From positions 2,948 through 66,947 of the forward strand of contig JAUNWH010000009.1 of NCBI GenBank assembly GCA_030540405.1: DNA of 64,000 bases. Reading direction: 5' to 3'. Below the pieces are notes generated by a model that saw only the letters and a program-made list of their open reading frames with translations, did no database searches and was not told the origin of the DNA. Both the position numbers and the translations under genes were made by a program. This document shows, piece by piece, positions 21,938 to 63,539 of the stretch. This DNA comes from Spirochaetales bacterium (lineage in GTDB: Bacteria; Spirochaetota; Spirochaetia; Treponematales; Treponemataceae). Position 1 is the first letter of the stretch, and the number at the start of each line of letters is the position of its first letter.

Positions 21938-21965
21938 TTGCAATCTCTGTGTTTTGCAATATAAT
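21938..21965 (+). promoter_or_regulatory. Candidate sigma-70 promoter of the NlpC/P60 lipoprotein gene
   Basis: TTGCAA (21938-21943), 16-nt spacer, TATAAT (21960-21965). Confidence 0.55.
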
Positions 21966-22013
21966 GTAGTTGTTCAAATCTTAATTTTATCAGCCCCGTA
22001 AAATACTATACAC

Positions 22014-22021
22014 GGGGGGGG
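22014..22021 (+). repeat. G8 homopolymer in the 5' UTR/Shine-Dalgarno position of the NlpC/P60 gene
   Basis: GGGGGGGG followed by TAGAA and the GTG start at 22027. Confidence 0.95.
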
Positions 22022-22026
22022 TAGAA

Positions 22027-22572
22027 GTGAAAAGCAAATTTATATTTGCTCCTTTTTTGTTCTGTTTTGCCATTCTGTTTGTTTCCTGCAATTTTAACAA
22101 TGATTCCGATGATACTACTGAAATAGACTGCCCTGCGGAAATTGCTTCCCGCGCGTTCCGATTTGCTGAATTGTACAAAGATTCTGATACGGTTTATGAG
22201 CTGGGCGGTCAATCTCCAGTCCGTTCCGCTATTGCCATAGACTGTTCTGGGCTTGTCGTGATGTGCTACAAGTATGCAATGGTCGATACAAAATATTCTT
22301 TGCCTGTTTCGGACATGACGGCGGGTTATATGTGCGAATGTGCTTCGTCTCACGTTACGCTAGAGCAAATGCGGCAGGGCGATTTGATTTTCATGGGCGA
22401 GGCGGATTCTTCCAATGTGTCGCATATCGCGCTTTTTGACCGGCTAGAAAACGACAATGTCTATTTTATCGACAGCACGGAAAAAGACGGCATAAGCGGT
22501 GTTACTTGCCGATATTATCCTTCCAGTGATTCGCGCTTTAAGTCGTTCGGCGTGATGAGAATTCAATATTGA
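22027..22572 (+). CDS. NlpC/P60 family cell-wall hydrolase lipoprotein
   Basis: Signal peptide with lipobox FVSC. Catalytic Cys motif DCSGLVVMCY and downstream His (VSHIALF). GTG start. Confidence 0.8.
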   Translation: MKSKFIFAPFLFCFAILFVSCNFNNDSDDTTEIDCPAEIASRAFRFAELYKDSDTVYELGGQSPVRSAIAIDCSGLVVMCYKYAMVDTKYSLPVSDMTAGYMCECASSHVTLEQMRQGDLIFMGEADSSNVSHIALFDRLENDNVYFIDSTEKDGISGVTCRYYPSSDSRFKSFGVMRIQY

Positions 22573-24454: not shown

Positions 24455-24769
24455 TTATTTATAGCTGATAGCAATTCCGCTCATGTTGTAACTGTTGAAT
24501 GTAAAAATAAGGAACACTGTTTTCTTTGTGTCAACTTTTACATTTACAACATCATCGCATTCTGGATACTTTTTCTTTGCTTCTGCATAAAGCTTGCTAT
24601 AGCCAGAATTTGTGGCAGAAGACTTTACTTCTACACGTCCAAGAACTTCATAGCTTTGCGCATCACCTGGAAAAGCTCCTGCATCACTAAGTGGTGTCAT
24701 AGAAATGCAGCCTGTTAGTGTTGCCGTCAAAATCAGCATAGACAACAATAAACCTACTCCTTTTTTCAT
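24455..24769 (-). CDS. Small lipoprotein of unknown function
   Basis: GGAGG then ATG at 24769. Signal peptide MKKGVGLLLSMLILTATLTGC with lipobox LTGC. 104 aa. The longer ORF (to 24829) would run through its own promoter. Confidence 0.75.
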   Translation of the reverse strand: MKKGVGLLLSMLILTATLTGCISMTPLSDAGAFPGDAQSYEVLGRVEVKSSATNSGYSKLYAEAKKKYPECDDVVNVKVDTKKTVFLIFTFNSYNMSGIAISYK

Positions 24770-24798: not shown

Positions 24799-24825
24799 AT
24801 TGTACCCCCCCCGGGATTCTGTCAA
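24799..24825 (-). promoter_or_regulatory. Sigma-70 promoter with a G8 tract in a 15-nt spacer
   Basis: Minus strand reads TTGACA-GAATCCC-GGGGGGGG-TACAAT. RBS and ATG follow about 20-30 nt downstream. Confidence 0.7.
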
Positions 24826-37895: not shown

Positions 37896-37985
37896 TAATA
37901 AGATTCGCTTTCAATATTGATGGGCTTTTGAAACTGGCGCATATTAATTGAAAATTATTACTATATAATCTATAATGGTTTAATC

Positions 37986-39687: not shown

Positions 39688-39800
39688 TTTCTCTGAATTT
39701 TTTTTTTAAATTTGCCTGGAAGAGTTTATATTCTGATGTTTGCTTGCGTAAAAGCTCGTTCATTTGAAAAAAATGCGGCAAAAGTTTATAATCATTGAAA

Positions 39801-60410: not shown

Positions 60411-61229
60411 ATGGAAATTGATGTTGCCCACGGATACCTGGATTCATTGAAAAAATATCCGCTGCTTTCCGCCGATGAAGAAATCGCGCTTGCAAAAAGA
60501 ATCAAGTCTGGAGACAAGGAAGCGTTCAATCTTCTTGTAAATTCCAATCTTAGGCTTGTTGTGAGCGTTGCAGGAAGATTCAATAAAGGCGCATCTTGCA
60601 TTATGGATTTGATTCAGGAAGGAAACCTTGGACTTATGACTGCTGTCCAAAAATTTGATCCGGCATTTGGAACTAGATTTTCAACTTATGCCTACAGATG
60701 GATTGTGCAGCGTATAATGAAATTCATCAGTGCTAACAGTTCTCCGATTTTGCTTCCGGTGCACAGGGAATCTCTTTTGCGCCGTATCCAGAAGTTTCAG
60801 AATATTTTCTTTCAGCAGAACGGAAGAGAAGCCACGGTCAAGGAACTTGCGCTTTTTGCTGGAATTTCAGAAGAGAGGCTGAATGATGTTCTTGATACTT
60901 CTTATACAGTCGCATCTCTTGATGTTGAAGTTGCTGATGAAGGAAAAACGGTTTCGCTAGGCGATGTTATCCCGGACACGGCGTTTTCTCCAGAAGAACT
61001 TGCGGTCAGAGAGGATTCCAAAAGCTGCGTTAATTTTTTTATGGATTCTTTAACAGGAATAGAAAAGAGTGTTTTGTGGCATCGTTATAATTTTGACTAT
61101 GACTTGCATTCAAAAAGTTTGCGTGAAGTCGGTAAAATTGTCGGGCTGAGCCAAGAGGCGGTGCGCCAGGCTGAGCTCCGTGCCAAAAAACATCTTAAAT
61201 CTGCAATGGAGAGTGTTTTTGCTGTTTAG
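60411..61229 (+). CDS. Group-2-like alternative sigma-70 family factor (RpoS-like)
   Basis: Region 2 NLRLVVSVAGRF...DLIQEGNLGLMTAVQKFDP...FSTYAYRWIVQRI. Region 4 SLREVGKIVGLSQEAVRQAELRAKKHL. GGAG lies 7 nt before ATG 60411. 272 aa. Confidence 0.88.
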   Translation: MEIDVAHGYLDSLKKYPLLSADEEIALAKRIKSGDKEAFNLLVNSNLRLVVSVAGRFNKGASCIMDLIQEGNLGLMTAVQKFDPAFGTRFSTYAYRWIVQRIMKFISANSSPILLPVHRESLLRRIQKFQNIFFQQNGREATVKELALFAGISEERLNDVLDTSYTVASLDVEVADEGKTVSLGDVIPDTAFSPEELAVREDSKSCVNFFMDSLTGIEKSVLWHRYNFDYDLHSKSLREVGKIVGLSQEAVRQAELRAKKHLKSAMESVFAV

Positions 61230-61284: not shown

Positions 61285-61333
61285 GAGGGGCTTCGGTTGT
61301 GATTTTATTCAGCGCCGAAGCCTCTGTTTTTTT
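61285..61333 (+). terminator. Rho-independent terminator after the sigma gene
   Basis: GAGGGGCTTCGG ... CCGAAGCCTC (bulged stem) followed by TGTTTTTTT. Confidence 0.7.
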
Positions 61334-61367: not shown

Positions 61368-62303
61368 TTATTTTATTTTTATAGGTTCGGAGTCTATAGA
61401 TGCTGTTCTCCACATAAAATTTTCTTGACCTTCCATTTCAAGTTCAAAACTGTATGCATATTGTGCAATTAGGTGAGATTTGTTTGAACTGTCAAGAAAA
61501 TATTTGAATCCCTTTGATAATAACTCTGTATTATATTTATTTGAACAATAAGCTATGTTATTTGGGGTGCGATCAACTGCTTCGTATAATTCTTCCGAAG
61601 ATATTATTTCTTGCACGTCTCCTTTATAGTTTCCAAGCCAAAGAACTTCATTGTCAATGTCAGTTGCATCCCAGTTAATAGTGCTGCTGTTTGTTACGCT
61701 GTAGCTTATGAATGCCTTTACATTTTTCGCTTCTGGAGGAATGCAATCAATTATTTGGCAAGTTGGTTTTGTTCCATCGTATGACAGGTTCAAGTGTCTG
61801 CTTGATTTTAAATTTGAATAATCGATGTCGCCAATTCCATCTGTAGCAGTAATAGTTAGGAAATCTTCATAAGCATTTAGTCTGTCTCCGATTTCTATCT
61901 TAACACAAAATTTATATTTTTCTCCTGGCTCGCATAAAGGATAAAGAAAACTGAATTGTTCATTTGAAATTAATGGCACGTCTAGCTTTGTGCTGTACAA
62001 TCCATTTTCTTCAATTCTTTGAATTGATATGTATGTTGTTCCTTTTGGAGGCGTGATTGAAAATTTTATTCCGCCTTCTACTGCTGCACATTCTACTCGA
62101 TCGGTTTTTGTAATTTCAGCATATTCTCCTTCCTTTTTTATTTTTCGGCTTGGATTATATATAACACCGTCTTTCTTGATTCTAAGGTCAAGAACTCTTG
62201 AACTTGTATCATCTGAATCTGAACTGCTTGATCCGTCGGAACAGCTTGAAAAACAAATTGCACAAATCAATGAAATTCCAAAAATAAAGTTTCTAATTTT
62301 CAT
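61368..62303 (-). CDS. Lipoprotein of unknown function
   Basis: ATG 62303 preceded by GAGG. Signal peptide MKIRNFIFGISLICAICFSSC (lipobox FSSC), then an S/D-rich linker. 311 aa. Confidence 0.75.
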   Translation of the reverse strand: MKIRNFIFGISLICAICFSSCSDGSSSSDSDDTSSRVLDLRIKKDGVIYNPSRKIKKEGEYAEITKTDRVECAAVEGGIKFSITPPKGTTYISIQRIEENGLYSTKLDVPLISNEQFSFLYPLCEPGEKYKFCVKIEIGDRLNAYEDFLTITATDGIGDIDYSNLKSSRHLNLSYDGTKPTCQIIDCIPPEAKNVKAFISYSVTNSSTINWDATDIDNEVLWLGNYKGDVQEIISSEELYEAVDRTPNNIAYCSNKYNTELLSKGFKYFLDSSNKSHLIAQYAYSFELEMEGQENFMWRTASIDSEPIKIK

Positions 62304-62322
62304 TATAAAATACCTCAAGGTT

Positions 62323-62349
62323 ATTTTACCCCCCCCTAAATTTTGTCAA
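62323..62349 (-). promoter_or_regulatory. Sigma-70 promoter with a G8 tract in a 15-nt spacer
   Basis: Minus strand reads TTGACA-AAATTTA-GGGGGGGG-TAAAAT. Same layout as 24799-24825. Confidence 0.7.
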
Positions 62350-62425
62350 TCGTCCCGGCCATAAAATTAGGGTTTACGCATGAGAATAAATTTACACAGG
62401 AATTCAAATGTGATAAAATTTCCTC

Positions 62426-62590
62426 ATGGTGGAAGGATTTTTTGAGGAGATATCGGACAGCCGGCAGGAATGGAAGGTCTTGCACATCATTGATGAGATA
62501 CTGACAATCGTGATGTGCGGAGTAAGCGCCGGAGAGCTGACGATACACGGCATCCACGCATTTTCAACGATACATAAAAATCTACGTTGA
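62426..62590 (+). pseudogene. N-terminal stub of an ISAs1-family transposase (DDE_Tnp_1-associated domain)
   Basis: Translates to MVEGFFEEISDSRQEWKVLHIIDEILTIVMCGVSAGELTIHGIHAFS, then stops after 54 codons. The pattern FxxIxDxR...H.L.DIL.I.. is typical of ISAs1 N-termini. No DDE domain follows. Confidence 0.6.
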
Positions 62591-63539
62591 CGAAAATGCT
62601 CTTTCTGAAAACTGCAGCGGACAGTTCTTTTTGACAGGCTCGCAGATGTTCTATCTTATGAAAAATGTGAGCGAGTCTCTGGCCGGGCGTGTCGGAATTA
62701 TTTCGCTTTATTCGTTCAGCCGCCGGGAAATTTTCAGCCTTGATTCTGTTCCTTTTTTGCCGGCGAATGATTTTTCAAAAATCAAAAAGACTTCCGGAAA
62801 ATCTTCCGTTTTTGATGATATTTACCGCGGCGGAATGCCAAAAATGATTACAGACCCGGAGCTTTCTCCGGAGGATTTTTTTGGCTCTTATATGCAGACT
62901 TATTTGGAGCGCGACATCCGCGATTTAATCAATATAAAAAACGAGTCAAAATTCCTGAAATTTATTTCGTGTGCGGCCGCAAGAACTGCTCAGGATGTGA
63001 ATCTGTCTGACATTTCAAAAGATGTCGGAATCGACGGAAAGACGGCCGAAAGCTATCTGAGCATTCTTGTCGCATCCGGAATCGTCTATCTTCTTTCGCC
63101 TTATTCCGCAAACACGATAAAACGGATTGTAAAGCGTCCAAAGCTTTATTTCATGGACACGGGACTTTGCTGCTATTTGAGCCTCTGGAACAATCCTCAG
63201 GCTCTGGAAGTTTCCGCGATGGCAGGAAATATGTTTGAGACATACGTTGTTTCGGAAATCATAAAAAGCTATGCGAATGCCGGAATTGATGTGCGCAACA
63301 GGCTTTTTTACTACCGGGACAACAACAAAAAAGAAATTGACTTGCTGATAGTTCAGAACGGAAAAATCTATCCTGTCGAGATAAAAAAAGGAGCAAATCT
63401 GGCAAACGATGCCCTGAAGAATTTCAGCGTGCTTGAAAGCCTTGGAATGGAAACCGGAGACGGCGCGGTAATCTGTCAAAGCGATATGATAGTTCCGCTT
63501 GACAAAAAGAATAGCCTGATTCCATTTGAATATATTTGA
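62541..63539 (+). pseudogene. AAA ATPase of the AAA_14/DUF4143 family, 5'-truncated
   Basis: Frame is open from 62541 (YVDE...FFLTGSQMFYLM...SESLAGR). The DUF4143 block TYLERDIRDL...PKLYFMDTGL is intact, but the Walker A region is absent and replaced by the IS stub. Confidence 0.65.

Follow-up and report, generated by a model that had tools for sequence, protein, structure and literature searches.

A candidate poly-G contingency promoter upstream of a lipoprotein gene, conserved and of variable tract length among gut treponemes

Repeats located in the spacer between the -35 and -10 hexamers switch surface lipoprotein or fimbrial genes in bacteria such as Mycoplasma hyorhinis, whose vlp lipoprotein genes have a poly-A run there, and Haemophilus influenzae, where TA repeats occupy the spacer of the fimbrial genes hifA/B. 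G tracts in the same position are known from a treponeme and from Neisseria. The OmpW homologue tp0126 of Treponema pallidum has a poly-G tract between -35 and -10 with an optimal spacing of 17 nt (Giacani et al., 2015 in PMC7864442), and the spacer G tract of N. meningitidis porA acts as a “volume control,” spacers below 17 nt first lowering and then abolishing transcription (van der Ende et al., 1995 in PMC7864442). Also described are G tracts of 7–11 nt that vary within T. pallidum strains in vivo, and tracts upstream of the surface-protein genes tprE/G/J and tprL whose length modulates promoter activity (PMC7864442). The tpr tracts reach over the -10 region, 4 nt from the start, with eight or fewer G's being permissive (PMC7864442), and this position means that spacing is not the mechanism there. 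In the literature searched, the one treponeme in which promoter poly-G phase variation has been studied is T. pallidum, a pathogen that cannot be cultivated, and no functional analysis of such variation in commensal or gut treponemes was found; comparative genomics has only counted G/C tracts per genome, with the fewest in the commensal T. ruminis (PMC8049484).

In the window, i.e., the whole 64-kb stretch of DNA that was analyzed (GC content 38.7%), the minus strand carries a -35 hexamer TTGACA (62344..62349) that matches the consensus perfectly, followed by a 7-nt non-repeat spacer part AAATTTA (62337..62343) and a G8 homopolymer (GGGGGGGG, 62329..62336; C8 on the plus strand), which abuts the -10 hexamer TAAAAT (62323..62328) and brings the total spacer to 15 nt. 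A first-pass annotation had read a promoter of exactly this layout, with the G8 touching the -10 (minus strand, 62349..62323), and the letters match it throughout; the elements it had placed downstream, namely GAGG, the ATG at 62303-62301 and, within the 311-aa reading frame, an FSSC lipobox and a Ser/Asp-rich linker, are all present as well. We infer that TTGACA and TAAAAT are the hexamers used. With just 19 nt between the -10 and the ATG, the Shine-Dalgarno motif GAGG (62313..62316, minus strand; 9 nt 5′ of the ATG and starting 7 nt past the -10) falls at the extreme 5′ end of the predicted mRNA, and a transcription start near 62316 would leave a leader of about 13 nt that opens at the Shine-Dalgarno motif. 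A promoter scan of the window misses the site (spacer 15 nt) because it allows only spacers of 16–18 nt, and its silence is therefore not evidence against a promoter. Other registers that would yield a 17-nt spacer were inspected by eye and rejected, GATTGA as -35 or AAATAA as -10 matching at 1–2 of 6 positions. Tract-free promoters in the window have spacers of 16–17 nt.

Like the vlp and hifA/B genes, this promoter (locus 1) has its repeat between -35 and -10 of a putative surface-protein gene, and it shares with vlp a conserved 5′ region (promoter and signal peptide) joined to divergent mature regions; both systems differ from it in repeat type and phylum, and the vlp genes form multigene clusters, whereas there is a single copy per locus here. 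The likeness to tp0126 (PMC7864442) extends to the genus, an envelope protein gene downstream and a sigma-70-type spacer poly-G of variable length, and that to porA to the G tract in the spacer. Both sequence-level features of this class, a homopolymer of at least about 7 nt in the spacer between recognizable hexamers and a tract that is polymorphic on constant flanks, are found at locus 1. The differences are that tp0126 is an OMP gene of a 52.8%-GC pathogen, whereas locus 1 serves an uncharacterized lipoprotein gene of a 38.7%-GC gut commensal, and has a tract that abuts the -10 and spacers of 14–16 nt. porA encodes a porin in another phylum and its common lengths include the full-ON state, whereas at locus 1 the 17-nt state occurs in 0 of 47 assemblies. 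The tpr genes also have G tracts of 7–11 nt that vary within strains 5′ of Treponema surface-protein genes; locus 1, in contrast, retains an intact TAAAAT after the tract and TTGACA before it, and the tpr-type arrangement is not found.

The promoter is not the only one of its kind in the window. A pattern search allowing up to two mismatches matched twice in the 64 kb, at 62349..62323 and at 24825..24799, with 0.00 matches expected from 100 dinucleotide-preserving shuffles, which bears out the earlier contention that chance is a poor explanation for two promoters so alike. The second (locus 2; 24799..24825, minus strand; one mismatch to the pattern) reads TTGACA-GAATCCC-G8-TACAAT with a spacer of 15 nt, its G8 touching the -10, and, as the first-pass annotation had noted, it belongs to an unrelated lipoprotein gene (104 aa, lipobox LTGC; 24455..24769, minus strand), which lies 29 nt downstream. 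Measured against an analytic first-order expectation, G/C runs of 5–7 are rare in the window (1 seen, ∼18 expected), whereas three runs of at least 8, all of exactly 8, were found where 0.095 were expected. All three are situated at most 30 nt upstream of lipoprotein genes, that is, at three of the approximately four such genes that a crude lipobox scan detects in the window. The fourth encodes an amino-acid ABC substrate-binding protein, and its promoter, TTGACA-N17-TATGTT without a tract, provides a control from the same genome of what normal spacing looks like.

The third G8 (22014-22021, plus strand), which comes in addition to the two tracts of the first-pass annotation, is found 5 nt 5′ of the GTG of an NlpC/P60 lipoprotein gene (22027-22572), in a 5′UTR/Shine-Dalgarno position downstream of a TTGCAA-16-TATAAT promoter (21939-21966), and may represent a translational rather than a transcriptional contingency site. 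In Treponema sp. UBA6852 (L058) this tract reads G8-TAAAA-ATG (L058:3038-3045), and in a further assembly (L159) a deletion of ∼135 bp has cost the NlpC/P60 gene its start codon together with tract and promoter. A hairpin between a C-run and a G-run around the 22014 tract was considered and rejected, as it is absent from L058. Three other promoters of the window, of the type TTGAAA-17-TATAAT/TATCAT (37948-37976 and 39764-39792, plus strand; 51994-51966, minus strand), end 6–9 nt 5′ of their own start codons, and judging from this distance the genes behind them may give rise to leaderless mRNAs.

The gene downstream of locus 1 (61368..62303, minus strand) encodes 311 aa plus stop, beginning with a signal peptide (62241..62303, minus strand; lipobox FSSC, Cys21), and the family shows hardly any variation in residues 1–44. 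An identical sequence is listed as a hypothetical protein in a “Spirochaetales bacterium” MAG; 598 homologs are found in uncultured Treponema and T. succinifaciens, and an exhaustive profile search recovered only 83 cluster representatives. Searches of Pfam and NCBIfam returned no family, and a profile search against PDB sequences returned no relative. Residues ∼88–230 recur, sometimes 7–16 times, in giant cell-surface proteins with SLH, Big_13, FN3 or List_Bact_rpt domains. An AF2 model of the protein, with a beta-rich mature part, is of low confidence (pLDDT 57), and the weak tandem FN3-like matches that Foldseek retrieved with it are for this reason just a hint; with low confidence we regard the protein as a cell-envelope lipoprotein with beta-sandwich modules. 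As surface exposure of a lipoprotein cannot be deduced from sequence in a spirochaete, “surface” is to be understood here as predicted.

A hairpin (61286..61325; MFE -19.3 kcal/mol, z = -2.0) separates the lipoprotein gene from a convergent gene for a sigma factor, and since a T-run follows it on the plus strand only, it is likely the terminator of the sigma gene, possibly shared with the lipoprotein gene. The sigma gene (60411-61229, plus strand) encodes a 272-aa group-2-like sigma-70 factor (RpoS/RpoD-like) that scores below all NCBIfam cut-offs; the adjacency of the two genes is also found in the sister species, and nothing in the sequence points to this factor reading the G-tract promoter. 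On the promoter side, the IS remnant that the first-pass annotation had placed next to the lipoprotein gene is indeed there, as a Pfam DDE_Tnp_1_assoc fragment (62426-62587, plus strand) within a 54-aa reading frame (62426-62590, plus strand) left from the N-terminus of an ISAs1-type transposase, with an AAA/DUF4143 gene that is truncated at its N-terminus behind it (62631-63539, plus strand). The sister species retains the small sigma-70-family gene and asnS on one side of the lipoprotein gene, and on the promoter side has a Lactamase_B gene instead of the IS remnant and the truncated DUF4143 gene. Homology to the sister species breaks off at ∼62371, ∼27 nt 5′ of the -35, where relatives have the Lactamase_B gene, and the rearrangement thus spared the promoter cassette. 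In the T. succinifaciens clade the lipoprotein gene is located downstream of rpmB.

For comparison, 28 loci encoding five homologs (83% and 54–55% identical) were collected, together with 21 loci from an independent metagenome collection; the names of many of these assemblies point to human gut studies, e.g., the Hadza sets. A 5′ cassette (62169..62370, minus strand) consisting of an upstream block CTAATTTTATGGCCGGGACGA, the promoter, the Shine-Dalgarno motif, the signal peptide and the Ser/Asp linker is conserved nearly base for base in 45 other gut Treponema assemblies (T. succinifaciens and relatives), in front of mature proteins that are 46–55% identical. Its kept form is TTCTAATTTCA..GCCGAACC.C-TTGACA-AAACTC-Gn-TAAAAT-RACCTTGAGGTAYTTAT-ATGAAAATTAGAAAC. 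TTGACA is the same in 45/45 orthologous cassettes, the non-repeat spacer part of the relatives measures 6 nt (AAACTC), TAAAAT is kept with the exception of three loci with TACAAT, CCTTGAGGTA around the Shine-Dalgarno motif is kept in all relatives, and a conserved block extends from -75 to -36, upstream of the -35. Between the window and the T. succinifaciens clade, nucleotide identity amounts to 80–92% from -35 to +135 from the ATG, to 54–65% in the remainder of the gene and to ∼35% outside; identity that is high in the 5′ part and low beyond it indicates that a conserved expression cassette has been combined with a mature domain that diverges.

The tract is the sole variable part of this arrangement: among loci with the same protein, the flanks show 0 differences over 900 positions of the CDS and 0–1 over 94 positions upstream, and the tract is G8 in 14, G9 in 29 and G10 in 2 of the 45 orthologous cassettes. 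Within single protein groups, G8 and G9 occur three times each (P0049), G9 eight times and G10 twice (P0005), or G9 five times and G8 once (P0021, with the tract of L027 read by eye). In a register-safe comparison, three downstream haplotypes were distinguished and the tract varies inside two of them (L017 with G9 and L018 with G8; L019 with G8 and L020 with G9), from which it follows that the changes are recurrent and not one inherited event. Both G8 and G9 are found in SPAdes contigs of 56x and 66x coverage from one study. The window (7+8) and its commonest relatives (6+9) have the same spacer total of 15 nt, and over the 47 family-1 assemblies, window included, spacers of 14 nt (15 assemblies), 15 nt (30) and 16 nt (2) were counted, with 17 nt in 0/47 of these consensus contigs. 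The G-tract spacer of a distant homolog (L190) is exactly 17 nt.

Some loci depart from this picture. One (L189) has an interrupted tract, G7A, and in another, on a metagenome contig (L172:∼290-335), a different sequence takes over upstream, precisely from the tract on (…GCTT-G9-AGG-TAAAAT, no -35); the tract is a breakpoint there, either of recombination or of assembly. A sweep of a lipoprotein allele between strains had been suggested by a CDS with 0 differences between flanks that seemed ∼2% diverged; it was ruled out, as the identical block spans ∼2.1 kb and the differences correspond to neighboring genes and alignment shifts.

Locus 2 can be followed in relatives, too. L058 and a second assembly (L159) are syntenic with the window at 22–25 kb and read TTGACA-GAATCCC-G9-TACAAT, against G8 in the window, so that the length polymorphism whose absence would have spoken against the first-pass annotation is seen at both loci (G8/G9/G10 and G8/G9). 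A clade in another gene context (P0126, protein 66% identical) has TTGACA-TTTTTC(C)-G8/G9-TATAAT with spacers of 14–16 nt, and in one strain of the locus-2 family the tract has decayed to G6CG (L149). In the P0129 clade (L161–L170) the G tract is replaced by T9 (TTGCTA-AAATGC-T9-G-TATAGT, spacer 16), and this run is invariant in 10/10 assemblies, which makes it a natural contrast of poly-T and poly-G stability.

When one genome per species was scanned for TTGACA-N5-8-G≥8-N0-3-TAHAAT, at least 120 loci (L029–L148) matched. Among the matches listed, at least nine Treponema loci are upstream of lipoprotein genes, and many others stem from MAGs of gut Clostridia and Bacilli, besides further groups. 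The genes behind the matches listed have signal-peptide-like N-termini more often than control ORFs (46% vs. 14%, p = 1e-11), and the same holds for lipobox-like N-termini (16% vs. 2%, p = 3e-8), which suggests that a “phasome” of putative poly-G promoters could be widespread in gut bacteria. The recurrence at lipoprotein genes of other Treponema genomes includes a cultured organism: in the rumen isolate T. bryantii NK4A124 (NZ_ATWV01000011.1; L118), TTGACA-AAGCGGTC-G9-TACAAT, with a 17-nt spacer, is situated upstream of a gene for an 823-aa lipoprotein. A Treponema paralog family with the N-terminus MRKFAKISAVLAAM...GC has TTGACA-AATCCC-G8/9-TACAAT (L032:4072-4097, L119, L044:6986-7011, L134), a promoter core nearly equal to that of locus 2, and again joins conserved signal peptides to divergent mature parts. 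Two members of this family are found in one MAG labeled Desulfovibrionaceae, which is probably mis-binned.

We consider it probable that locus 1 is a simple-sequence-repeat contingency promoter that obeys the classical spacer model. The spacer of a near-consensus sigma-70-type promoter (TTGACA/TAAAAT) would contain a hypermutable G tract; at replication, slipped-strand mispairing would add or remove single G's, each change would shift -35 and -10 relative to each other in distance and rotational phase and would thereby alter the transcription of a monocistronic lipoprotein gene, and the outcome would be heritable, reversible expression variants in the population. The unrelated gene at 24.8 kb would be governed by the same design. 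That the tract length differs between otherwise identical strains makes the tract very probably a mutational expression switch, and the reading of the first-pass annotation as contingency loci gains from the polymorphism at both loci and from the recurrence in other Treponema. Under this model a weak or OFF promoter is predicted for G8 (15 nt) and the maximum for G10 (17 nt), with G9 at 16 nt in between, although for this specific assignment of G10 to the ON state we find slightly more room for doubt than for belief. As the spacers measure 14–16 nt and never 17 nt, the majority state in the assemblies is predicted to be weak or OFF, and populations may sit mostly two or three slips short of the optimum. 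The recurrent changes on identical haplotypes are consistent with heterogeneity within populations, but they do not amount to a rate.

The prevalence of short spacers could be read differently, with a hypermutable regulatory tract that does not follow the classical 17-nt spacing and whose short forms (G8–G9, spacers 14–15) are the expressed state, length acting on open-complex formation or on the geometry of RNA polymerase and a bound factor at the conserved block 5′ of the -35. We regard this as unlikely, even though spacers of 14–15 nt occur in 45/47 assemblies and 17 nt in none, the window and its commonest relatives reach 15 nt by different routes (7+8 and 6+9), and the block at -75 to -36 is conserved. 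In Bordetella fim, a C-tract between an activator site and the -10 offers a comparable arrangement. A precedent within the genus is tprE/G/J of T. pallidum, where eight or fewer G's are permissive (PMC7864442), but there the tract overlaps the -10 beside the start, which is not so at the 62.3-kb promoter. Here, as at tp0126 and porA, the tract lies between clear hexamers (a perfect TTGACA and a near-consensus TAAAAT), the G-tract spacers of L190 and of T. bryantii L118 are exactly 17 nt, and the modal length is explained equally well by populations that are mostly OFF. It is likewise an unlikely extension that gut treponemes possess a phasome of conserved 5′ cassettes and diversifying mature domains outside the classical 17-nt rule; two variants would fit, default-OFF bet-hedging with the ON state two or three slips away, or a tract that tunes the geometry of RNA polymerase and a bound factor with short spacers active.

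Switching as such is put in question if the tract is nothing but a static element of the promoter, or a hotspot of neutral mutation, in front of a conventionally regulated gene, which would agree with most assemblies sharing one or two lengths and with the T9 that stands in the same place, invariant in 10 loci, in one clade of locus 2. This seems improbable to us: G/C runs are avoided, yet runs of at least 8 are kept at orthologous promoters whose proteins are ∼50% identical, all three tracts of the window sit at lipoprotein genes, and genes for secreted proteins are enriched downstream among the matches listed. The interrupted tracts (G6CG in L149, G7A in L189) demonstrate that decay happens, and retention elsewhere therefore implies selection. 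That the length polymorphism is an artifact of sequencing or assembly, the tract being real but stable, we hold to be highly improbable. Homopolymers of at least 8 have a raised indel error and all data are consensus contigs from many pipelines, so that length differences between assemblies could in part be homopolymer consensus errors, but both states occur in 56x and 66x contigs that one study produced with one assembler, the remaining homopolymers of this ∼1 kb (T6, A-runs) show no differences, and the lengths are limited to 8–10 in a tract far shorter than assembler k-mers. G tracts of equal length in T. pallidum, moreover, vary by fragment analysis (PMC7864442).

Publications on T. pallidum tp0126 and on N. 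meningitidis porA already describe the contingency mechanism that we favor, and no new principle is involved. What is added is the structure of conserved cassettes with divergent domains, the short modal spacers and the cultivable relatives, in a device that has been kept throughout the T. succinifaciens-like gut treponemes and is polymorphic between hosts. T. pallidum being a difficult organism in which to study this mechanism, T. bryantii NK4A124 offers a cultivable and tractable model of it, and the type strain of T. succinifaciens is a cultivable model as well. If the phasome outside the 17-nt rule were real, it would characterize commensal gut spirochaetes in general and, judging from the scan of MAGs, might also be a trait of many gut Firmicutes. 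Our comparison suggests that commensal spirochaetes, too, may vary their predicted surface lipoproteins stochastically, a behavior that would bear on host immunity, phage pressure and strain persistence.
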